64,000 bases of DNA from Bacteroidota bacterium (lineage in GTDB: Bacteria; Bacteroidota; Rhodothermia; Rhodothermales; UBA10348): the NCBI GenBank assembly GCA_029262835.1, contig JAJCYQ010000095.1, forward strand, positions 71,573 to 135,572, given 5' to 3'. Every line of letters starts with the position of its first letter. Position 1 is the stretch's first letter. Shown piece by piece: positions 8,715-52,338 of this stretch. The translations under genes were made by a program, and so were the position numbers. The notes under the pieces are model-generated. The model worked only from the letters and a program-made list of their open reading frames with translations. It was not told the DNA's origin and made no database searches.

Positions 8715-9679
8715 TGAGGGGCGAGGTCATTCCAGACGAAACGGTTGCGAAGGCGCTTCCGTGGGATGACCTCGTTCCAGCGCTTCGACGTGCCTTCGCT
8801 GAAGACGTCTCTGTGCCAGAGCGCATGCACGTTCCACTGGCAACGGGAACTCTGCTGGTCATGCCTGCCTGGAGGCGCGGTGGCATCATGGGCCTGAAGG
8901 TGGCGACCGTCCATCCGGAAAATGCAATGCGCGCTCTTCCGGCCGTGCACGCCACGTATTTGTTGCTCCGTGAGCAAACGGGCGAAAGGCTCTGCGTCAT
9001 GGACGCTGGCGTGCTGACGACGCGGCGCACGGCCGCGGCGTCGGCACTGGCCTCGCGCCTGTTGTCACGACCAGGCAGCCGTACGCTGCTCATGATAGGC
9101 GCCGGCGCGCTCGCTGCGCCCCTCGTGGATGCGCACCTCTGGGCACGTCCCATCGACAGGGTCATGGTCTGGAACAGAACCGCTGAGCGGGCGCAGGCAC
9201 TTGTTACCCGACTGTCCGAAGGCTGTTGCGACGGTGTCAGCGCCGGACGGCGCGTCACGTTCGAAGCTGTGACCGCGCTTGACGACGCCGTATCCGAGGC
9301 CGATGTGATTTCATGTGCTACGCTCTCGACTGAGCCACTTGTGCGCGCCGAGTGGGTCGCCCCCGGAACTCATATTGACCTGGTTGGAGCCTTCCGGCCC
9401 GATATGAGGGAATCTGACGGTGCACTGCTCTCGAGCGCCCGCCTCTTCGTCGATTCAAAGCCGGGTGCTCTGTCCGAGGCCGGCGACATTCTGATGGCGA
9501 TCGGCGATGGGATGTTGACCCCGGAGAGCATTGAAAACGACCTTTTTGGGCTCTGCCGGGCGCCACAGGCGCCCGGCAGAGCGGCATCTGACATCACCGT
9601 CTTCAAGTCCGTCGGACATGCCCTCGAGGACCTGGCAGCTGCCGAACTGGTGGCCAAATCACTTGGAATCATATCATGA
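8714..9679 (+). CDS. Ornithine cyclodeaminase / mu-crystallin family enzyme
   Basis: 321-aa ORF. TTRRTAAASALASRLLSRPGSRTLLMIGAGALA (a Rossmann GxGxxA) and the overall pattern are typical of the OCD/ketimine-reductase family. Its ATG overlaps the ALDH TGA by 1 nt. Confidence 0.8.
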   Translation: MRGEVIPDETVAKALPWDDLVPALRRAFAEDVSVPERMHVPLATGTLLVMPAWRRGGIMGLKVATVHPENAMRALPAVHATYLLLREQTGERLCVMDAGVLTTRRTAAASALASRLLSRPGSRTLLMIGAGALAAPLVDAHLWARPIDRVMVWNRTAERAQALVTRLSEGCCDGVSAGRRVTFEAVTALDDAVSEADVISCATLSTEPLVRAEWVAPGTHIDLVGAFRPDMRESDGALLSSARLFVDSKPGALSEAGDILMAIGDGMLTPESIENDLFGLCRAPQAPGRAASDITVFKSVGHALEDLAAAELVAKSLGIIS

Positions 9680-10719
9680 GGTTGGCCATTGTCGGAGCCG
9701 GGATTCACGGCCTCTGCACGGCGCTCAGAGCGGCCAATCGGGGCTGGAACGTGTGCGTCTACGACCAGCACTCTATCCCGAACAGCCGCTCGTCGAGTGC
9801 CGACGATCACCGGTTGATCCGGTACGCCTACGGACACGAATTCGGATACACGAACCTGGTTGCAGAGGCGTATCCGGCGTGGGAACGTCTGTGGAATGTG
9901 CTCGGGCAGCGGCTTTACGCGCAGACGGGCACGTTTGCCATATCGAGCCACGAGTCCGGATATGTCGCAGCCAGCGTCCAGTCCATGAACCGAATTGGTA
10001 TAGAAGCGCACGTTGTTGGGTTCAAGGAGGCGCAGCGCCTCTGTCCTCACGTTCAGCTCGGAGAAACAGAGGTCGCCATGTGGAGCGCAAGCGGGGGTGT
10101 CCTGCTGGCCCGTCGAATCCTGGATGCCCTTACGACCGCGTGCAGGCAGCGACATGTCGCGCTCCACGCGAACCATTCGATTCGAGTGGATCAGGAACTT
10201 CCGCCGGCCGACTGTACCATCTGGACGCAGGGCGCCTGGTCGCCGGAAGTCGAACCCTCCCGGCAAGTCGTCGCATATTTCGAACCACCAGATGATTGGC
10301 GGGCCGCCCCCCAGCCCATGGTACTCGACCTGGTCGGCACGGACGGTTTTTATGTGGTCCCCGGTGTGGGCGGCACGCGCTGGAAACTGGGTCTGCACCG
10401 GAAATCAGGGTCCGGTCACCCTGACGATGATCGCGCGCTCACAAAGGACGAAGTCAATCATCTGGAAAATGCAGCGCGGGAGCGGCTGTCCGGACTGCCA
10501 GAGCCATTTCCGCTGTCAGGGCGGGCCTGTTACTACGCCGTTGCCAAAGAGGATCGCTTCGACTTGAGTCAGGCGACGGGAGGCCTCCGCTTCCAGGGTG
10601 GTTCAGGGCATTCGTTCAAGTTTGGCGCACTCGTCGGCGAACTACTTTGCAGCGTGGTGGCCGGCGAGATGCCGCTGGCCGAAGCCCGAGTGCGGCTGGC
10701 CGGGCGCTTTGTAGAATAG
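9676..10719 (+). CDS. FAD-dependent oxidoreductase (DAO / sarcosine-oxidase-like family)
   Basis: 347-aa ORF. N-terminal dinucleotide-binding motif MRLAIVGAGIHGLCTALRAA...VCVYD. Length and C-terminal GGSGHSFKFG fit the DAO family. ATGA overlap with the preceding gene. Confidence 0.8.
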   Translation: MRLAIVGAGIHGLCTALRAANRGWNVCVYDQHSIPNSRSSSADDHRLIRYAYGHEFGYTNLVAEAYPAWERLWNVLGQRLYAQTGTFAISSHESGYVAASVQSMNRIGIEAHVVGFKEAQRLCPHVQLGETEVAMWSASGGVLLARRILDALTTACRQRHVALHANHSIRVDQELPPADCTIWTQGAWSPEVEPSRQVVAYFEPPDDWRAAPQPMVLDLVGTDGFYVVPGVGGTRWKLGLHRKSGSGHPDDDRALTKDEVNHLENAARERLSGLPEPFPLSGRACYYAVAKEDRFDLSQATGGLRFQGGSGHSFKFGALVGELLCSVVAGEMPLAEARVRLAGRFVE

Positions 10720-26678: not shown

Positions 26679-27668
26679 ATGGAAATCAAGACATCGCCCG
26701 AGACCATTGACCATCTCCACGCCGGGTACAAATCCCTCCGGTCTGAAATTGCCAAGGTCATCGTAGGCCAGGACGATGTCATCCACAGGATCATTGTATC
26801 CATTCTGTGTCGAGGCCACGTACTTCTCATCGGTGTTCCGGGTCTCGCCAAAACGCTGCTCATCCATACGATATCCGAGGCGGTGGAACTGGACTTCAAT
26901 CGCATCCAATTCACGCCCGACCTCATGCCGTCGGACATCACGGGTACGGAGATCATAGAGCAGGACCGCTCGACGGGAGGCCGTGAGTTCAAGTTCGTGA
27001 AGGGCCCCGTATTTGCCAATGTCGTGCTGGCCGACGAGATCAATCGTACGCCCCCCAAGACACAGGCGGCTCTCCTGGAAGCTATGCAGGAGCACCGCGT
27101 CACGGCGGCTGGCCACACGTACGCACTGCCGGAGCCATTTTTTGTACTGGCCACACAGAACCCCATTGAGCAGGAAGGCACCTACCCGCTGCCTGAAGCG
27201 CAGCTTGACCGGTTCATGCTGAACCTGTGGCTGGATTATCCGACATTCGAACAGGAGGTCGAAGTGGTGCGGCAGACGACCTCAGCGCGCACGAGCAAGG
27301 TCGCGTGCGTCATGACGGCCCAGGACATACTGACCTATCAGCAGTTCATCCGGGAAATCCCCGTTGCTGACAATGTGATCGAATATGCCGTCCGACTCGT
27401 TGGAAAGACACGCCCTGGCAGCACTGCGGCCCCCGATTTCGTGAATCAGTACCTCAGCTATGGCGCCGGCCCGCGTGCATCCCAGTACCTGATCATGGGC
27501 GCCAAGACCATGGCCGCCCTCGACGGACGTCTGACACCATCAATCAGTGATGTAAACAGCCTGGCTATCTCTGTTTTGCGTCACAGGATCGTGTCGAACT
27601 TCACAGCCGAAGCCGAAGGCGTGACTTCCGTGGAAGTCATAGAGCGCCTCATGGAGCATTCGGTCTGA
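26679..27668 (+). CDS. MoxR-family AAA+ ATPase
   Basis: Walker A GVPGLAKT, Walker B VLADEINRTPPKTQAALLEAMQE and FVLATQNPIEQEGTYPLPEAQLDRF, a typical MoxR pattern. Confidence 0.9.
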   Translation: MEIKTSPETIDHLHAGYKSLRSEIAKVIVGQDDVIHRIIVSILCRGHVLLIGVPGLAKTLLIHTISEAVELDFNRIQFTPDLMPSDITGTEIIEQDRSTGGREFKFVKGPVFANVVLADEINRTPPKTQAALLEAMQEHRVTAAGHTYALPEPFFVLATQNPIEQEGTYPLPEAQLDRFMLNLWLDYPTFEQEVEVVRQTTSARTSKVACVMTAQDILTYQQFIREIPVADNVIEYAVRLVGKTRPGSTAAPDFVNQYLSYGAGPRASQYLIMGAKTMAALDGRLTPSISDVNSLAISVLRHRIVSNFTAEAEGVTSVEVIERLMEHSV

Positions 27669-37045: not shown

Positions 37046-40000
37046 CTATAAGCGTGCTGTCAGCTGAAACCGCCCCGTATGGATCGTGCGCCCACTTGAT
37101 GGAGCGCGGCCATCATAGGTGAGCCGCGCTGACAGCCGATCCGACAGCTCGGCCTGCAAACCAGTGCGCCACAACCACGAAGCCCCTCCTCCACGACCTT
37201 CTGTAAGCTGGAAACCCACGAGTCCTGCACTCGCGGCGCCCGCTGATCCAGAGCGTAGTGTAACCCGGGCATGTTCCAGGCGCGCAGTCACGCGTACACG
37301 GCTCTCGAGTGCCCAGGTCGACTCAATGGGCCAGATCCAGACGGATGCATTCGTCTCGGACTGCCGCTCCGTCTTGAACGACACGGCGGGATTGCTCGCC
37401 ACCGACCAGCGCCGCGTTACGGAAAGACGCGCCGAAGGACGAACGCGCCAACTCACCACATCAAAACTCCGAGTGGCAAACTGCGCACTTTCGGAGCGTT
37501 CCAGTTCGCGTGCCAGACCCAGCCCCCACGTCCAGACAGGCGTAGCCCGCCAGGATGTCTCAACATCCACAAGGTCCGTCCGCGAAGCCTCACTGCCCGA
37601 TGCCAGCGAGCTCAGACTGCGCACCGTTTGTGCGGTTACGTCCATATCGGCGCTGCGCACCCAGGGAAGCAGCGTTACCGTCTGTGCGACGCGGACGCGG
37701 CCGCGAATGGTTTCACCCGGCGTCCTGAACGTACCCAGTTTCAGCAGATAGACGTCGCGCCGTGAAGGGGTACGGCTGGTTTCCTGAACCTCCAGGACCG
37801 TTGTCGAGCCCAAACCTCCCAGCTTTTGCGTCCTTTCGGGCCTGATATCGAGTCGGATTCGACCCGTGACGCTTGTTACAGCCTCCAGGGAATCGGATGG
37901 CAGCAGCGTACGGACATAGTCACCTTCGGTCGGGTTTGTTTCTGGAATGAATTCGTCGAGCTGGATTACTCCATCGGTGTTCGCATCGACCCACACGAAC
38001 TGCCCTCGCTCGGGGCCTGTCCGGATGAAAATCTCCTGCAGCGTGGCCGAGCGCTCGCTTTTGGCATCGTAGAGCACATCGAGACGAGAACGACGAGATG
38101 GCCGGATCTGACCCGAGGCCGTCATGAGTAACGCGTCGTCGCTCGCCTGGCCGTCCTGGCGGGTCTGCCGCCAGCCCACGGATAAGTCCGTTTCAATTTT
38201 CGTGCGCGAGAGCCGACTGCCAAACCGAGACGTAAGAATGTCTACATCCGATGGCGCGGTGCTCCGACTGAATCGCGTCTCTGAGCGGACCTCGACTCCC
38301 AGGAATCCGCTCAATCCGCCACGCCCAGCGTCAAGGCCCGCACCATAGAGCGTGAAGTCGGGTTCGAGCGAGATGATGGCACGCTCCCCCTGGCGGGCGG
38401 TCATATGCTCCGATTCCCACCGGACCCATGGCCGAATGGAAATGCCATTTGGCGCCGCCATTCGTGCCGAATGGCGGCGCCAAACACCCTCCTGCAGGAC
38501 GCCGGGCCTCGATAAGCCGTCGCGCGTTCGAGTCCAGGACACGCGCGCATCCAGACTCGGTTTTCCCGGCTCAAACGACTGCACGGCAATGCGCTGCAGG
38601 ACGCCATCAAACGCAGAACCAAGATCCATTTTCTCAACCGTTGCATCAAGCCGTGTACTGTCGGCCAGTCCGACCGTCACACGCCCCGTGCTTCTCGCCT
38701 CCTCTTCGCCTGCTACTACATTCTGGGTGACCGCTGATCCCGGGCTCGAGGTAATATTCCACGTACGCTCAAATTCCACATCCCGCGTGCGATCGAAGGC
38801 TGTAAAATACGAGGAGCGACGTTCGAAGCGCCCTTCGGCTTCCACCCAGATGGACGGAGCGCCTGGCCGCCACCGGTCTGTTTTCAGCGCGGCGGCCAAG
38901 GCATTGCCGCGATCGTCGTTGTCATCGAGTGTCGACAGCCGATTACGATCCAGCCGTGATCCGGCCCACTCCAAAGAAACCTGGGCGAGCGGAAGCGCCC
39001 GGCTGACCATGTGTAAACTGACCAGTTCCTGACTGCGTGGCGCTGAAAGAGGCACTACCGGCTCATACTCACCCTGACCTTCCCCGACAAACCTGAAGAC
39101 AATACCATTCGCATTTCCAGCGCCTGTCCTGATGTAACTGCCCTCGCCAGCGCCGAGTCTCGTGAAGGTTACACGGAATACCCGCTCCCCCTCCATGGGC
39201 TCGCGCAGTACGGGAATGAAAACCGCCAGGGTATCTCCACCGGGCAGCACGCGCTGCTCTTCAAAGTACTGCGTAAACAACGCCTCCGGATCATACGTCA
39301 CTTCGCGCGCCCCGCTGCGCAGGGGCGTAGTGTCCCCTGCGCCTATGACGGCTGCGGAATCTTCCGCCGTAAAGGCCAACTCCTCGGTGAATGCATTCCC
39401 ATCCGCCTCCCTGATGGCCGTCACATCGATATCCGCATACCGCATGCGCGCACGTCCAGCCCCGAACACAAACGTTCGCGTAAACTGGTTCGTTGTAAAC
39501 TCGAACTCAACACGTATACGGCGTTCCCGCCCAATGATATGGCGTGATGTAAAGGAAACTTCTGCCGTCGTGTAGTCGATCGTATAATCTTCCTGTGCAC
39601 CGCGCGTGAGGAGCTGTCCATCGAGAAATACACGCTCCGATCCAGGAAGCACAAGGATGAACCGCTCACCCGTGGTGCCTTCGAGACGGTAGGGACCCTG
39701 TACGCCATCGAGTGCCTGGATCTGCTGCGAGCGGAAAACTCCCCGCGATGTGGCGCCAGCCACCCGTGTCTGCCACGGCGCCGTACCGCTCGAGGAGCTC
39801 CTTTCCACGCGGCTTCCGACTTCCAGAAACGCTCCCTGGAGACTCCGTCGTACGAGTCCGTACGTTCCGCTTCGGTGCATGACATCCACGTCTCCCAGTT
39901 GGAGTTCTCCGCGGTCCATTGAGAGTCGGATGAATACGCGATCGAACTGGTCGAGTCGCCGCGTTGTGCCCTGGGGCAGGACCGGCGTGTCCTCGTCGGT

Positions 40001-40492
40001 CAGCGACGCCATGATGCGGAGACCCGGCGTCAGTTCCCCCTCCATTTCGAAACGCAGGGCGGACTCGATCGATGCATCACGACCCGATCCGGCCACGACG
40101 CCGCGCGTTACCGACCCGGAACGCCGGAGGTCGGGGACGCGGGACTGCACGACGGGACGCAACGCAGCACGCTCCTTTTCATCGGCATTCGGCCACGCCC
40201 GGACACCCGCAGGGCGGCCGAGTGGAATGTAGGCGTACGTGGCCACGAGACGCATGGACGAGTCCGCAGCAACGGCGTGGAGTTGCAGCAGCCCGGCGGC
40301 GGCATCGAGCGTGTAGGAGGATGGCGAAATCGAACGTAATGGATCCACCATTTTCAGGTGCAGGCTACCCTCGACAACAAACGGCCGCAGTTGGAAAGGG
40401 CCTGGTCCGACGACGTTCAACGTATCGGAAACGACGGGTGCTTCCTGGGCCTTTGCGACCCCATAATCGCACAAAAGTACGATCAGGACCAT
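37046..40492 (-). CDS. Very large predicted outer-membrane/secreted beta-rich protein, function unknown (~1148 aa)
   Basis: Single uninterrupted ORF. The internal ATG at 40492 gives a signal-peptide-like start, MVLIVLLCDYGVAKAQ/EAP. The sequence is R/S/T/G-rich with alternating hydrophobic residues throughout. It ends in an amphipathic strand, GRFQLTARL. I see no catalytic or TonB-plug motif. Confidence 0.6.
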   Translation of the reverse strand: MVLIVLLCDYGVAKAQEAPVVSDTLNVVGPGPFQLRPFVVEGSLHLKMVDPLRSISPSSYTLDAAAGLLQLHAVAADSSMRLVATYAYIPLGRPAGVRAWPNADEKERAALRPVVQSRVPDLRRSGSVTRGVVAGSGRDASIESALRFEMEGELTPGLRIMASLTDEDTPVLPQGTTRRLDQFDRVFIRLSMDRGELQLGDVDVMHRSGTYGLVRRSLQGAFLEVGSRVERSSSSGTAPWQTRVAGATSRGVFRSQQIQALDGVQGPYRLEGTTGERFILVLPGSERVFLDGQLLTRGAQEDYTIDYTTAEVSFTSRHIIGRERRIRVEFEFTTNQFTRTFVFGAGRARMRYADIDVTAIREADGNAFTEELAFTAEDSAAVIGAGDTTPLRSGAREVTYDPEALFTQYFEEQRVLPGGDTLAVFIPVLREPMEGERVFRVTFTRLGAGEGSYIRTGAGNANGIVFRFVGEGQGEYEPVVPLSAPRSQELVSLHMVSRALPLAQVSLEWAGSRLDRNRLSTLDDNDDRGNALAAALKTDRWRPGAPSIWVEAEGRFERRSSYFTAFDRTRDVEFERTWNITSSPGSAVTQNVVAGEEEARSTGRVTVGLADSTRLDATVEKMDLGSAFDGVLQRIAVQSFEPGKPSLDARVSWTRTRDGLSRPGVLQEGVWRRHSARMAAPNGISIRPWVRWESEHMTARQGERAIISLEPDFTLYGAGLDAGRGGLSGFLGVEVRSETRFSRSTAPSDVDILTSRFGSRLSRTKIETDLSVGWRQTRQDGQASDDALLMTASGQIRPSRRSRLDVLYDAKSERSATLQEIFIRTGPERGQFVWVDANTDGVIQLDEFIPETNPTEGDYVRTLLPSDSLEAVTSVTGRIRLDIRPERTQKLGGLGSTTVLEVQETSRTPSRRDVYLLKLGTFRTPGETIRGRVRVAQTVTLLPWVRSADMDVTAQTVRSLSSLASGSEASRTDLVDVETSWRATPVWTWGLGLARELERSESAQFATRSFDVVSWRVRPSARLSVTRRWSVASNPAVSFKTERQSETNASVWIWPIESTWALESRVRVTARLEHARVTLRSGSAGAASAGLVGFQLTEGRGGGASWLWRTGLQAELSDRLSARLTYDGRAPSSGRTIHTGRFQLTARL

Positions 40493-40663
40493 GCAACCCG
40501 TCCTGATAAGCCCGTGTGGTAAATGACGATGCTGCTGTTGCACCCTGCGCCCGAATGGTCTGTCGACTGACGCAGTCACAAACACGCCCGTGGCAGGGCA
40601 GTTTCCCACCCGTTGCCACATCACACAAACTGGCCCTACATTGGATAACGTTCAATAAGCAGA

Positions 40664-47909: not shown

Positions 47910-49133
47910 TCAGTGCTGTAGATGAATGGCACGAATGGGGTCAATTCTGGATGCGTACCGGGCTGGTACAAAGGCCGCCCCGGTACACAGTATGCATGTT
48001 AGTAGTGGTACGAGTGCGAAGTCAAGTAGAGACAGTGCAATCGGCGCCTCTTTCATATAATAGGCTTCTGCTGGCAGGGGGATGATCCCATACTCCATCT
48101 GAATCAGAGCAAACACGAGGGCAATTGTAGCACCAATTGTAGAACCTGCAAGTCCAATACCGAGTCCGACCCGTGTGAATGTGGCGGTCATATCCCTGCC
48201 GCGTGCTCCCATGCCCATAAGGACACCAATGTCCGAGCGCTTTTCGAGGATGACCATGAGCAGCGTGCCGATAACATTGACGGCAGCGACGAGAACGATG
48301 ATTGAGAGCACAAGCGGAATGATGCTCTGTTGCAGTCGCACCCACGCAAAGAGACTCCGGTAGACCTCGCTGATGGGTCTGGCCATAGCTGGAAACGGAA
48401 GCAGGTCGTCGAGAACCGTGGCTATGCGTTCATAGTCTTCCCCCTCCTCTACTCGTACGTCGATCCGAGACGCTGCATCGGGAGCATAGCCCACCAACTG
48501 CCGCGCACGGTCAATCTCCGTGAACAGATACAGGTCATCAAAATCCGCGAGCGACGACTCGTATAGACCGGCCACCGTGAACTGCCCGACGCGTGGCCGC
48601 CCCTGCATGCCATCTGATGGAACAGAGAACAGCGTAATCCTGTCTCCAGGTTCAACCTGCATGGAATGCGCGAGGGATGCACCCATGTATAGTTCGCCCG
48701 GTGACAGCTTCGTCCGCGACGTACCGGCCGTCAGCGCTACATAGCTTGGCAATTCATCGGTTCCCCAGATGGCAGCACCTTCGATGCGCTTTTCATCTGT
48801 CCTGAGTAATACGAATTCCAGCACGATCTGCGCCGTACCGACTACACCTTTCTGCTCTTCAGCAATCGCCGCGTAAGAATGGGCCTCGGCAAGGGGTGCG
48901 TCGCGCAGGCTTTCAATCTGGATCTGGGCTCCAAAACCGACTATTTTTCGGGTGATTTCATCGCTGAACCCGCGTACAATGGCAAGCGAAAGGATAAGCG
49001 TCGCGACACCAACAGCCACTCCGCCAACGGCAATCCGCACTACCAGCCGCAGAAAACGGCGTCCTTCAGAGCGTCCCTCCGCTCCGCGGAGGTACCTTAA
49101 TGCCAGAAAAGTCTGCAACGATTGGTTTCGCAT
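47910..49133 (-). CDS. LolC/LolE-like FtsX-family ABC transporter permease
   Basis: Start set at the ATG at 49133; the track start at 49151 is a TTG. LALRYLRG N-terminus, a large periplasmic loop and a C-terminal FtsX block, GVLMGMGARGRDMTATF...AFVPARYASRIDPIRAI. No cognate ATPase gene is adjacent. Confidence 0.75.
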   Translation of the reverse strand: MRNQSLQTFLALRYLRGAEGRSEGRRFLRLVVRIAVGGVAVGVATLILSLAIVRGFSDEITRKIVGFGAQIQIESLRDAPLAEAHSYAAIAEEQKGVVGTAQIVLEFVLLRTDEKRIEGAAIWGTDELPSYVALTAGTSRTKLSPGELYMGASLAHSMQVEPGDRITLFSVPSDGMQGRPRVGQFTVAGLYESSLADFDDLYLFTEIDRARQLVGYAPDAASRIDVRVEEGEDYERIATVLDDLLPFPAMARPISEVYRSLFAWVRLQQSIIPLVLSIIVLVAAVNVIGTLLMVILEKRSDIGVLMGMGARGRDMTATFTRVGLGIGLAGSTIGATIALVFALIQMEYGIIPLPAEAYYMKEAPIALSLLDFALVPLLTCILCTGAAFVPARYASRIDPIRAIHLQH

Positions 49134-49184
49134 GCGCTGTTGACGTTGCAACAGGCATTCGGATCCTTGCGCCTCGAAGAGGAC

Positions 49185-52085
49185 CTACACGGCGTAAGCG
49201 TTTGACGGCTCGATGTGTGTGAAATGATAGGCCATCCAGGGACCGCTCAGCTGAAATTCGACGCCCATCTGCGCGTACTGCGCGGCAATGGTGTTTACTG
49301 TGGCCCGAAACTCGGCTTCCTTTGCCTCGGATACGAGATAACTGGCGTTCAGTACGATCCGATGCGTAGAGTCGGGACTTCCCGGAACGTTCTTCAGTAA
49401 GCCTTCCGATGCCACACCCAGGATACGCGTGTGCGTATTACCTACGACATTCTGGATCAGTGTTGCCAACTGTGCTTCGTCGGGCGCTTCGGCGCTGAGT
49501 TTGAGTTCCTCTCGAATAAAGCCGGCAACGCCGCGCGTCATGTCATTCAATGAGGCATCGATGCGCGCGTCGGACGCCATAAAATGTTCTCTAAGGGCAT
49601 GCATATCGACGTGCAGTCGCACGCTGAACTCCTTCCGGTTCGAAAGTCTCGACAAGGCGTCCCGGAACGCTTCGTGGCGTTCGGACAGGAAATCGTCCAG
49701 ATCGACTGGGCTTTCGAAGACTTCACCGAACGGGAGCGGTACGAGCGATTCGACGCACGGCAGGGCATTCAGGATTTCGGCGTGTCGCGATACCTGGCCC
49801 TTCGTCCACGATGCATCGGACATCGCCGCTTTGAGTGCACCTCCGCCGAACGTCGAAGCGGGAACGCGTGATGTTACCGCACACAGGTTCTCCCACGTGT
49901 GGAATTGCAGCTCCGAACCGGCTGCCAATCCTTCGATGTTTTTGATGTCCTGCGGATCGAGGGCGTCAATATCCACGACGCCGTATACATAAATCAGTGA
50001 TTGCGTGCTGGTGTTCGGGCTGGAAACAGTTGCCAGTCCAGGAGCCTTGGAAACCGCGCCATCCCCAGGTGCAAACAGTTCGGATACGGCCCAGGGCTTT
50101 GCGGCCTCGTCCTCAATTGGATTATTATCATACTCAGTCTGTGATTGCAGTTCTTCCCCAAGCTGTTCCACCTCAGGCTGTTCCACATCAGGCTGTTCCA
50201 CCTCAGGCTGTTCCACTTCAGGAAGTTCTTTCCCGGCCGTCGCGTGGACATCTACCGGTTCGGGTTCGTCCATGTCAGACAAGGAAGTCCACGACACGCC
50301 TTTGGCTTCAGGTTCCAGCACAGCCGTCATCGCTTTGCGCAGTAGACCCATGTCCTCGCCTGTAGCATTCTTTTCAGCAGACTGTCCGAGTGTACGGAGA
50401 GTATCGGCCAGCACAGTCGCCATGATACGGTCGCGGAGTGATTCCGCGATGAGGCCGATCTCAGGTGCGTCTCCCGGCACCCGATCCATGGCCTCACTCA
50501 CTGACTGCTCCACTTGTCCGAGTGCTTCAAGCGTGTTGGTAGCTACGAGGTGCAACACTTTGTCCTGGAGAGCACGTTCCAGGCGCGCAATTCCTTCTGA
50601 TTGAAGATCCACGCACTCCCACGCTGCTTGGACCACTTCGTCCGTCTGATCAATCTTCTGTTCGGCCATCCGGGCAATCTCATCCTGGAGCCTCGACACC
50701 AACGATTTCCACGCCGCATCGAGACCGGACGTCGCGTCCATTCGCTCGCGCGCCGCGTCAACAATTCGCTGTACATCTGCGAGACGTTCACCGGCCTTCG
50801 CGCCAACTTCGGCAACGAGCATTCCTTCAAGCATGTCAGCCGCCTGTTCGACACCGGCAAGCGATTCGGCCATCCGCGTCCGTGCTTCGGATGAAAGTTT
50901 TTCAACGTGCAACAGGCGCCCTTCAGCCTCGGAGATGACTTCTCCAAGGATGAGCGCCATGGTCGCCTTCACGATCCGCTGGACATCATTGTTCTCGAGT
51001 GGAATGGCAGCAGAAGCACGTGAGGCCATGACCTCCGTATCACTGAGATGCTCACCTGTCAGTGACGCAATGTTCGCGATGAGCAGTTCACGGGCGGCCA
51101 TTACGGCGTTCGAGACGTGCTCCTCACTCTCAACCGCGACGTGGTCTGCCGCTGAGCGTGCCATTGACGCCGGGTTCTGCAATTCTTTTCGCAGTTCGGT
51201 TTCCAGGTGCCGGGTCAAACTGGCCATGGCTGCATCGCGGGCAGCTTCGAGGTCAGGATCGGACGCAGAGATCCAAAGTTCCGCATCGGTAGCCAGTTCC
51301 TCGCGGTTACCAAGCGAGCGGGCGGTACGACGGGCGATATCCTGAATGATGCGTGTGCGCAGGATGGTGGTGGCGGCAATCAGGTCGTCCTGGTCAAAAG
51401 TAATCAGTGCGCGCGCCTCGTGGGACAGGCGATCCGCATCGCCGAGACCGTCGAGCGTGCGATCGGCAATGCGCTGAACAAGCGATTTGCGGACATCGGT
51501 TGCGACCGTTTGTGTCAGATCAGAGGACGCCAAGACTGATTCAATGGTTTGCTCTATCATTTCAGAGCGGTCGCCATGGTCGTCGGAGAGCGACTCCTCT
51601 GACAATGTACGTGCCTTGGCCACGACAGCGGCGTTTACAGCGGAGTCGACATCTACCGTCTGCATGGCGCTTTCCGTCTGCTCGCGTATAAGTTCCTCCA
51701 TCTGCAGCTGAACCTGCTCTTTGACCCGCTGCGTGATGTCCGATGCAATGTCCGGATGTAAATGGAATTCCGGCTGGGCGGTAGCAAGGCTGTCGGCTGC
51801 AAGGGCGTCAATGTCCAGCCCATCCCAGACTGCGCTGGCCTCGGCATCGACCATATCACGGACTTGCCGGGTAGCATGCTCCTTCACCGATGAGGCTTTG
51901 GCAGCGATCATTGTGCGGATTCTCTCGCGTGCAGGTTCGAGATCAATCTCAATGTCCCTGATCTGCTGATCAATCTGCTCCTGGCTGTCGGCCGCCAGCT
52001 CATCGACGGCCTGTTGCATAAGTGTGCGCAGCAACTGCTGCTTGACAGCTGCTCGGGCTTCGTCCATCTGGGGTTGCTGGTTCAT
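49185..52085 (-). CDS. Giant repeat-containing protein with a C-terminal GvpL/GvpF (gas-vesicle protein) domain
   Basis: Single ORF (track 49185..52202). The start is probably the ATG at 52085 (MNQQPQMDEARAAVKQ...). The C-terminal ~270 aa (nt 49185-49997) read LIYVYGVV...CAVTSRVP...QVSRHAEILNAL...LVPLPFGEVFES...NRKEFSVRLHVD...VEFQLSGPWMAYHF, which matches the GvpF/GvpL pattern. The N-terminal ~700 aa are acidic and helical, with ~44-aa repeats. Confidence 0.7.
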   Translation of the reverse strand: MNQQPQMDEARAAVKQQLLRTLMQQAVDELAADSQEQIDQQIRDIEIDLEPARERIRTMIAAKASSVKEHATRQVRDMVDAEASAVWDGLDIDALAADSLATAQPEFHLHPDIASDITQRVKEQVQLQMEELIREQTESAMQTVDVDSAVNAAVVAKARTLSEESLSDDHGDRSEMIEQTIESVLASSDLTQTVATDVRKSLVQRIADRTLDGLGDADRLSHEARALITFDQDDLIAATTILRTRIIQDIARRTARSLGNREELATDAELWISASDPDLEAARDAAMASLTRHLETELRKELQNPASMARSAADHVAVESEEHVSNAVMAARELLIANIASLTGEHLSDTEVMASRASAAIPLENNDVQRIVKATMALILGEVISEAEGRLLHVEKLSSEARTRMAESLAGVEQAADMLEGMLVAEVGAKAGERLADVQRIVDAARERMDATSGLDAAWKSLVSRLQDEIARMAEQKIDQTDEVVQAAWECVDLQSEGIARLERALQDKVLHLVATNTLEALGQVEQSVSEAMDRVPGDAPEIGLIAESLRDRIMATVLADTLRTLGQSAEKNATGEDMGLLRKAMTAVLEPEAKGVSWTSLSDMDEPEPVDVHATAGKELPEVEQPEVEQPDVEQPEVEQLGEELQSQTEYDNNPIEDEAAKPWAVSELFAPGDGAVSKAPGLATVSSPNTSTQSLIYVYGVVDIDALDPQDIKNIEGLAAGSELQFHTWENLCAVTSRVPASTFGGGALKAAMSDASWTKGQVSRHAEILNALPCVESLVPLPFGEVFESPVDLDDFLSERHEAFRDALSRLSNRKEFSVRLHVDMHALREHFMASDARIDASLNDMTRGVAGFIREELKLSAEAPDEAQLATLIQNVVGNTHTRILGVASEGLLKNVPGSPDSTHRIVLNASYLVSEAKEAEFRATVNTIAAQYAQMGVEFQLSGPWMAYHFTHIEPSNAYAV
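50162..50221 (-). repeat. 15-nt tandem repeat x4 (unit gctgttccacNtcag on + strand), encoding (PEVEQ)4
   Basis: Units at 50162-50176, 50177-50191, 50192-50206 and 50207-50221 differ at one position only. They translate on the minus strand to LPEVEQPEVEQPDVEQPEVEQL, in the linker before the GvpL/F domain. Confidence 0.9.
50310..51497 (-). repeat. Array of at least nine degenerate ~44-residue (about 132-nt) protein repeats
   Basis: Manual alignment of consecutive 43-45-aa blocks: DVRKSLVQRIADRTLDGLGDADRLSHEARALITFDQDDLIAATT / ILRTRIIQDIARRTARSLGNREELATDAELWISASDPDLEAARD / ... / ALQDKVLHLVATNTLEALGQVEQSVSEAMDRVPGDAPEIGLIAES / LRDRIMATVLADTLRTLGQSAEKNATGEDMGLLRKAMTAVLEP. The hydrophobic and Leu-Gly positions recur. 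Weaker copies continue N-terminally to about nt 51980. Confidence 0.65.
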
Positions 52086-52338
52086 TGCAGCGCTCTGTGA
52101 GTTCGGTTTGTCGTACCCTCCGCGCATGCAACTCCTGTGCCGGAACGAATACATCCTCCAAACGCCTATTTTGATGCGTTCCGATGCGGTACCCGACCGC
52201 ATTTCTTGCCCCTGTGCGGAAAATTATTCCGCTCCTCTCACGTCAATGAGTCGTGCAACAGCACGCGCCGTTGGAAGTTTGAATGAAAGCCTGCAAGACG
52301 CTTTCCATGCGTGTTACATTGCCTGTTCGTCCGCATCC

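Follow-up and report, generated by a model that had tools for sequence, protein, structure and literature searches.

Tandem 44-residue helical units joined to a GvpL/GvpF-fold domain in a protein encoded at a housekeeping locus of Rhodothermales

What is a protein with a gas-vesicle-type domain doing in an ordinary stretch of core chromosome, and what is the long repetitive region that precedes this domain? These questions are raised by a gene located in a DNA stretch of 64 kb (64,000 nucleotides; hereafter the window) of a Bacteroidota bacterium from the order Rhodothermales (assembly GCA_029262835.1, contig JAJCYQ010000095.1, positions 71,573 to 135,572). The initial annotation of this gene, based on its letters and translation, described a GvpL/F protein with tandem helical repeats of ~44 residues. 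The analysis presented here demonstrated that the array is an ancient tandem repeat of ~44-residue helical units, which can be detected at the protein level only. Overall, the protein is composed of a predicted all-helical N-terminal region with the repeats as its core, a disordered acidic linker of ~100 residues and a C-terminal GvpF/GvpL fold, so that the repeat array and the linker place ~700 residues in front of the GvpF-fold domain. Residues are numbered throughout according to the longest open reading frame (ORF) of the gene, as in the initial annotation, whose span for the repeats (50310-51980) corresponds to residues 75-631 of ORF 49185..52202 of the minus strand.

A nine-unit array with a 44-residue period

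Autocorrelation of the protein sequence (BLOSUM62, residues 41-690) showed a single, sharp maximum at lag 44 (z = 6.6 versus 300 shuffles), with weaker echoes at lags 88 (z = 2.75) and 133 (z = 3.2). No signal was obtained in the same region at lags 11, 22, 33, 42 or 49 (z = -0.16 at lag 33), so that the array has neither a heptad or coiled-coil periodicity nor a 33-residue repeat of the GvpC type. An apolipoprotein-like 22-residue periodicity and an 11-residue periodicity like that of late embryogenesis abundant (LEA) proteins or perilipins were also considered, and were rejected because lags 11, 22 and 33 were not significant. According to a sliding score, the lag-44 signal is confined to approximately residues 200-560, and a short stretch fits lag 43 better, in agreement with the block lengths of 43-45 residues proposed in the initial annotation.

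Nine consecutive units of 43-45 residues cover residues 236-630, i.e. 395 residues (Table 1). The recurring motifs listed for them previously were all found in place: SLVQRI, TRIIQDI, ELLIANI, DKVLHLV and DRIMATV; RTLDGLG, RTARSLG, NTLEALG and DTLRTLG; and ITFDQDDL with the rest of its group. A leave-one-out test was performed, in which a hidden Markov model (HMM) was built from eight units and the left-out unit was scored against 200 composition-matched shuffles of itself. Eight of the nine units obtained scores of 8.5-21.9 bits, which were reached by none of their 200 shuffles, while unit 3 (residues 323-367) failed the test (-0.1 bits). Profile-profile comparison of the orthologue sub-alignments with hhalign joined all nine units in register, with probabilities of up to 96%, and the same nine units are present in all six orthologues. 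An iterated, family-wide unit HMM recognized ~300 units among the family members, and shuffled decoys gave no match at all.

The conservation of the array among the orthologues is uneven. It is strong in units 1, 2, 5 and 9 and in an N-terminal cap described below, and weak in units 3, 7 and 8. Within unit 9, the first half is well conserved and the second half is divergent.

A 44-residue periodicity could in principle be a by-product of biased composition, or simply of amphipathic or coiled-coil helices in general. Ala, Leu, Glu and Arg are abundant in the region, which is predicted to be entirely helical, and the pairwise identity of the units is low (mean 14%, maximum 35%), as such an origin would lead one to expect. 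It is nevertheless extremely improbable, given that the peak stands alone at exactly 44 with nothing at the five other lags, that eight of the nine units outscored every one of their composition-preserving shuffles, and that the profile-profile matches are in register. Moreover, the unit HMM separated the family from the decoys completely, and several relatives carry 8-11 units at a spacing of exactly 44 residues. A compositional artefact is therefore effectively refuted, and the nine clear units of the initial annotation, together with a significant periodicity of ~44 residues, stand.

The mean identity between pairs of units is 33% at the DNA level, and a search of the gene with TRF revealed no 132-bp DNA period. 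Because the DNA of the units is unrelated and no tandem repeat of this length exists in it, the array represents an old, protein-level periodicity, as had been proposed.

Table 1. Features of the repeat-GvpL/F gene and of its downstream neighbour. Bits are leave-one-out HMM scores, followed by the number of shuffles reaching them; percentages given for units are hhalign probabilities; invariant positions refer to the orthologues; pLDDT, predicted local distance difference test; pI, isoelectric point; iE, independent E-value.
Feature	Position in window	Strand	Residues	Observations
Longest ORF	49185..52202	-		1005 codons including the stop codon
Conserved N-terminal motif, degenerate tenth ("cap") unit	51906..52061	-	48-99	homology to the first unit of relatives
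Helical, poorly conserved segment	51498..51905	-	100-235	predicted helices; mean majority frequency ~0.48
Repeat unit 1	51366..51497	-	236-279	17.5 bits, 0/200; 95.2% to unit 2; 16/44 positions invariant
Repeat unit 2	51237..51365	-	280-322	20.7 bits, 0/200; 95% to units 1 and 8; 18/43 invariant
Repeat unit 3, most degenerate	51102..51236	-	323-367	-0.1 bits; 90.5% to unit 4 (E = 1.4e-6); family HMM iE = 4e-5
Repeat unit 4	50970..51101	-	368-411	21.9 bits, 0/200; 95.7% to unit 7
Repeat unit 5, most conserved among orthologues	50838..50969	-	412-455	10.8 bits, 0/200; 20/44 invariant
Repeat unit 6	50709..50837	-	456-498	14.7 bits, 0/200; 92-94% to units 1 and 7
Repeat unit 7	50577..50708	-	499-542	10.5 bits, 0/200; 95.7% to unit 4
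Repeat unit 8	50445..50576	-	543-586	19.9 bits, 0/200; 94.9% to unit 2
Repeat unit 9	50313..50444	-	587-630	8.5 bits, 0/200; 90% to unit 2 over 30 columns
Acidic Pro/Glu-rich linker, predicted disordered	49995..50312	-	631-736	pLDDT 30-37; pI 4.05
Linker motif SWTSLSDMD	50268-50294	-	637-645	W..LS in 18/43 family members
15-bp tandem DNA repeat	50162..50222	-	661-680	4.1 copies, 93% match; encodes PEVEQ-PEVEQ-PDVEQ-PEVEQ, (P-E/D-V-E-Q)x4
Linker motif KPWAVSELFAPGDG	50058-50099	-	702-715	W.V.E...GDG in 11/43 family members
GvpL/GvpF-fold domain	49218..49994	-	737-995	Pfam PF06386, Foldseek
FtsX/MacB-PCD (LolC/E-like) permease gene	47910..49151	-		domain scan; downstream, co-directional, 33-bp gap

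Stacking of 301 units of the family revealed the signature L3, R/K4, L7, h8, I/V11, A12, A/T/S15, L19, D21, E/D23, h25, A26, A29, I/V33, I/L/V40 and A43 (h, hydrophobic), with an acidic Gly/Pro-rich loop at positions 34-38. As predicted with AlphaFold2, the 44 residues of a unit are made up of a helix of ~25 residues, a 2-residue break at L19-x-D21, a second helix of ~11 residues and a 5-residue loop. This helix-kink-helix-loop pattern recurs every 44 residues in the full-length model, and the predicted secondary structure is thus consistent with the helical character ascribed to the units at the outset.

In several respects the array resembles HEAT, Armadillo and Sel1 repeats. Its unit length of ~44 residues is comparable to theirs (HEAT ~37-47 aa, Armadillo ~42 aa, Sel1 ~36-44 aa), there are two unequal helices per unit (predicted), the copy number is variable and the identity between units is low, and the buried positions, rich in Leu, Ile, Val and Ala, follow an i/i+4 spacing. 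In sequence, by contrast, it matches neither a Pfam repeat family (HEAT, ARM, TPR, Sel1, PPR and others) nor a PDB chain: the repeat region matched nothing in Pfam, either in the window protein or in nine relatives, and a profile of the N-terminal region produced no matches to PDB sequences at E ≤ 10. The unit therefore does not coincide with a characterised repeat family in these two databases.

The initial annotation had allowed for perhaps 12-13 units in total, which is more than could be recovered: nine units were counted, together with a degenerate one at the N-terminus. In the conserved N-terminal motif, the six orthologues agree completely at 28 of 51 positions (residues 46-96); the direct match of the unit HMM to this motif is weak (residues 53-70, iE = 0.006). 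Residues 48-99 align (hhalign, 95.6%, E = 1e-8) to the N-terminal segment of the relatives, EALKQKLLKAVMQQA..ELG..., which constitutes a significant first unit of a regular array (iE of 5e-7 to 4e-12 in most of them, and 1.9e-6 in P0022). Since this segment is a bona fide first unit, residues 48-99 were counted, by transitive homology, as a degenerate tenth unit capping the array. Between the cap and unit 1, residues 100-235 gave no match to the unit by block-wise hhalign, by hhalign to the pooled unit alignment or by the family-wide iterated HMM. The sole signal in this segment was a 74% match of residues 104-147 to residues 148-191 with a 10-residue offset, and it was not taken as a 44-residue unit. 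The nine units alone account for 395 residues; together with the other helical N-terminal segments, they make up about two thirds of the protein.

A size difference was noticed between two close orthologues, P0005 and P0006. They are distinguished by an indel of ~47 residues (alignment columns 222-268), about one unit length, directly N-terminal to unit 1, which may be left over from the gain or loss of a unit. The segment inserted in P0006, VVRDLLVTKAVDAAMTHLDED..., is unit-like by eye, and its HMM match is not significant (iE = 0.09).

Relatives and variation in repeat number

A word-indexed search with the full-length protein identified six clusters (36-100% identity), all of which contain PF06386. 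In addition, 1.84 billion representative proteins were searched at E ≤ 1e-3 with an HMM of the N-terminal region only, the GvpF domain being excluded. This search yielded 49 proteins, 32 of them at E ≤ 1e-10. The relatives were scanned locally with an HMM of the C-terminal domain and with the unit HMM. A GvpL/F domain was found at the end of 37 of the 47 relatives outside the window's own clade, and the remainder are mostly short fragments. When ten relatives were compared with Pfam, PF06386 was the sole domain of seven; the other three had already been domain-less in the local scan.

The number of detectable units per protein varies between 0 and 13, and the protein lengths between 487 and 1889 aa. 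The units are spaced by 44 residues or by multiples of 44, the latter suggesting that undetected degenerate units lie in between. The presence of the GvpL/F domain in most of these proteins, combined with their variable unit counts, indicates that the repeat and this GvpL/F subfamily go together and that the repeat number is evolutionarily labile. As judged from sequence comparisons, the repeat represents an undescribed family that occurs essentially only in fusion with one GvpL/F subfamily.

All named members of the family originate from metagenome-assembled genomes (MAGs) of Rhodothermales ("Bacteroidetes Order II") or from the genus Rhodocaloribacter, with the thermophile Rhodocaloribacter litoris (WP_228350556.1) as a cultured representative, whose protein contains eight units spaced by exactly 44 residues. 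The gene is present in the complete R. litoris genome (CP076718.1) and in MAGs such as GCA_029262775.1, GCA_024711125.1 and PCUY01. A literature search for Rhodothermales GvpL/F, orphan GvpF and Rhodocaloribacter returned nothing relevant, and no paper on this protein was found.

The GvpL/GvpF-fold domain and the gas-vesicle label

The C-terminal domain matches PF06386 over profile positions 2-244 of 245, with 131.4 bits against a gathering cut-off of 23.6 (E = 7.6e-38). In the AlphaFold2 model this domain has a pLDDT of 85-95, and a Foldseek search with it retrieved the GvpF crystal structures 6l5d_A (E = 1.5e-10, target template modelling (TM) score 0.77) and 4qsg (E = 6.5e-10, target TM score 0.70). 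These matches identify the GvpF fold, which is defined by two alpha+beta, ferredoxin-like subdomains. A comparison with PDB by sequence alone gave a best E of 0.6, to 4qsg, so that Pfam and a fold comparison were needed to establish the relationship to GvpF; the domain shares 15-17% identity with the solved GvpFs. By sequence and predicted fold, the protein belongs to the Pfam GvpL/GvpF domain family, and the C-terminal GvpL/F domain of the initial annotation is genuine. The designation of the whole as "the GvpL/F protein" is appropriate as regards this domain and its fold, but not at the level of equivalogs, since the NCBIfam models (NF045778, NF052351) scored far below their cut-offs (GvpL, 38.5 bits versus 200; cyanobacterial GvpF, 26.1 versus 350).

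Canonical GvpF and GvpL proteins consist of ~240-300 aa, comprise this domain alone and are encoded beside gvpA in gvp clusters. The protein described here has the same domain over its C-terminal 260 residues, and its model superposes on the GvpFs of both Microcystis (4qsg) and Anabaena (6l5d). It differs from them in carrying ~700 additional N-terminal residues and in being encoded at a housekeeping locus without gvp genes.

GvpC, located on the outer surface of gas vesicles, contains helical repeats of 33 residues, and a link between it and the array had been put forward as a speculation. Tandem helical repeats and a gas-vesicle-related label are common to both. Nevertheless, the period is 44 and not 33, the unit is predicted to form a helix-kink-helix-loop whereas GvpC forms one continuous helix, and gvpA is not adjacent to the gene. 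Pfam holds a GvpC repeat model; a Pfam scan of the protein at E ≤ 1 returned GvpL_GvpF and a chance-level CUPID match only, with no GvpC repeat. The proposed link was not borne out by these comparisons, nor by the surroundings of the gene, where no gvp cluster was found.

The protein might still be a genuine gas-vesicle accessory protein, namely a GvpL/GvpF orthologue whose array would extend in a GvpC-like manner along the vesicle shell, with the gvp structural genes located elsewhere. The Pfam score well over the gathering threshold, the fit of the fold to GvpF crystal structures, the NCBI label "GvpL/GvpF family gas vesicle protein" of some members, and the occurrence of long helical repeats in a Gvp protein, reminiscent of GvpC, would all be in line with this explanation. 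We consider it very doubtful. No GvpA-like sequence was detected by tblastn with two GvpA queries, either in the window or in 189 kb of sequence from nine related loci, and no gvp domains were found in Pfam scans of the neighbours in eight loci or of the other scanned large ORFs of the window. The equivalog scores and the repeat comparison point in the same direction, as does the fact that the gene is single and occupies a fixed housekeeping slot across the order. We also found no paper that substantively links gas vesicles with Rhodothermales, which is weak evidence. A MoxR-type AAA_3 ATPase gene of the window (26679-27668, plus strand) was considered separately as a candidate for GvpN and was rejected: it represents another AAA subfamily, is separated from the repeat-GvpL/F gene by 22 kb and is not surrounded by gvp genes.

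The linker that joins the array to the GvpF-fold domain is poorly conserved, apart from two Trp-containing motifs (Table 1). Several positions of both are invariant among the six orthologues, and the motifs are conserved within the nearer part of the family, which makes them candidate short linear interaction motifs. The linker also contains the only DNA-level tandem repeat of the gene, with a period of 15 bp. Orthologues P0002 and P0004 lack the PEVEQ stretch that it encodes, and it therefore seems to have arisen by a recent slippage expansion, in contrast to the old 44-aa units.

The protein as a whole is acidic (pI 4.5) and contains no hydrophobic, membrane-spanning-like segment, the maximum Kyte-Doolittle mean over 19 residues being 1.22; it is probably cytoplasmic. 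In an alignment with five orthologous clusters, the orthologues start with MNQQPQMDEAR (M40) or MDEAR (M46), and conservation begins at M46. For this reason the true start is probably M40 (52085) or M46 (52067) and not the first codon of the longest ORF, which would give a protein of ~960-966 aa and leave the first 39 codons (52086-52202, minus strand) untranslated. Database entry P0001 (980 aa) uses another start, located further upstream.

Genomic context and possible function

The window represents ordinary core chromosome. It encodes NusA, RimP, a release factor, S1, a Glu/Gln-type tRNA synthetase, methylmalonyl-CoA mutase and a sigma factor, as well as peptidyl-prolyl isomerases (PPIases), threonine synthase, 5-enolpyruvylshikimate-3-phosphate (EPSP) synthase, CopA, PurC and others. 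The repeat-GvpL/F gene is flanked on one side by a divergent aldehyde dehydrogenase gene and on the other by the permease gene, which is followed by a peroxiredoxin gene. In seven of eight loci, whose proteins are 22-29% identical, it lies directly upstream of an FtsX/MacB-type permease gene. The arrangement of a divergent Aldedh gene, the repeat-GvpL/F gene, the FtsX permease gene, AhpC (in most loci), ThiS and MoaE is kept around orthologues and distant relatives, the proteins in question being 636, 792, 915, 949, 1438 and 1889 aa long. At this orthologous housekeeping slot the repeat number has thus expanded and contracted, in proteins of 636-1889 aa. In the P0024 lineage, the gene is located elsewhere and is not accompanied by the permease.

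The conserved adjacency could mean that the protein acts in the cytoplasm as a partner or regulator of the FtsX/MacB-PCD permease, co-transcribed with it, in which the rod and the GvpF-fold domain would couple the transporter to a client. The co-directional position directly upstream of the permease in such divergent loci speaks for this, as does the 33-bp gap between the two genes in the window, where no terminator-like site was found. However, the pair is part of a larger conserved block (ligA, SSF, 7TMR-HD, GntR, Aldedh, ThiS, MoaE, purC, LacI, copA), and a gene order conserved among unrelated housekeeping genes may reflect lineage-wide synteny only. In addition, the P0024 lineage possesses the gene without the permease, no ABC ATPase gene is adjacent, and a GvpF-fold partner of FtsX-family proteins is without precedent. 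A partnership with the permease is therefore considered unlikely.

We favour, with moderate confidence, an explanation in which the protein is a scaffold or adaptor, composed of a client-binding GvpF-fold domain, a helical rod-like array and a flexible linker; such a protein would be neither a GvpC-like brace of a shell nor, most probably, a component of the canonical gas-vesicle pathway. The role of the C-terminal domain is suggested by analogy with GvpF and GvpL. GvpL serves as a hub of protein interactions, and GvpF attaches to the N-terminal part of GvpA much as a chaperone would (PMC7688916; PMC11445434); in the Bacillus megaterium system, GvpF was proposed to chaperone the shell protein transiently (PMC11445434). 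By this analogy, the GvpF-fold domain may bind proteins or work in a chaperone-like way, gripping a helix or peptide of its partner. The repeat array would form an elongated helical rod or solenoid, in which the cap and units 1, 2, 5 and 9 could offer position-specific docking surfaces; the uneven conservation of the units favours this over a role as an inert spacer. Being flexible, the disordered linker might allow the two ends of the protein to work at a distance.

Several points weigh against the scaffold explanation. The full-length model gives the repeat region a pLDDT of 55-73, which bears on how the array would pack; a cropped six-unit model reached 47.5, and a fold search with it gave nothing significant (best E = 1.3). 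The cropped model was computed from a 38-row multiple sequence alignment of in-register windows, in which MAFFT moved the shifted orthologue windows back to their orthologous positions and so defeated the added depth. It should also be noted that a conserved order of housekeeping genes around this gene may carry no information on its function. Finally, the search for gvpA covered the window and nine loci, and a more distant gvp cluster may exist.

A bolder extension of the scaffold explanation is that the GvpF/GvpL fold serves outside gas vesicles throughout the Rhodothermales, as a length-tunable cytoplasmic scaffold or ruler in a housekeeping process, possibly a Lol/FtsX-linked one, in hosts without gas vesicles. 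At one orthologous locus, the number of 44-residue repeats would then have drifted from ~2 to well over a dozen. We offer this as a tentative and somewhat unlikely suggestion.

Two further genes of this neighbourhood deserve mention. The window contains an ORF of 1192 aa (37046-40624, minus strand) with no Pfam domain at E ≤ 1e-5, and genes of 1147-1196 aa, likewise without a Pfam match, occupy the same syntenic position in loci L003, L004 and L006. This ORF is thus a second large conserved protein of the neighbourhood without an assigned domain. In L006, which harbours the 1438-aa relative P0012, a gene of 375 aa (8838-9965) is additionally inserted between the aldehyde dehydrogenase gene and the repeat-GvpL/F gene; it has no Pfam match and is absent from the other loci.

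The GvpL/GvpF domain itself was already known; what is new is the repeat family and the context in which the GvpF fold occurs. With ~300 detected units and a clear sequence signature, the repeat constitutes a new family not represented in Pfam. Automatic annotation as a "GvpL/GvpF family gas vesicle protein" should not be taken to indicate buoyancy in Rhodothermales genomes or MAGs. GvpF and GvpL are essential and mechanistically obscure assembly factors, which are of great current interest owing to the engineering of gas vesicles as acoustic reporters. A relative that retains the fold throughout a lineage, lies away from gvp genes in all loci analysed and is joined to a helical array of variable length would imply that the GvpF fold is a general protein-handling module and not a speciality of gas vesicles. 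The family, with one member from the culturable thermophile Rhodocaloribacter litoris, would also provide a natural system in which to ask what this fold binds.

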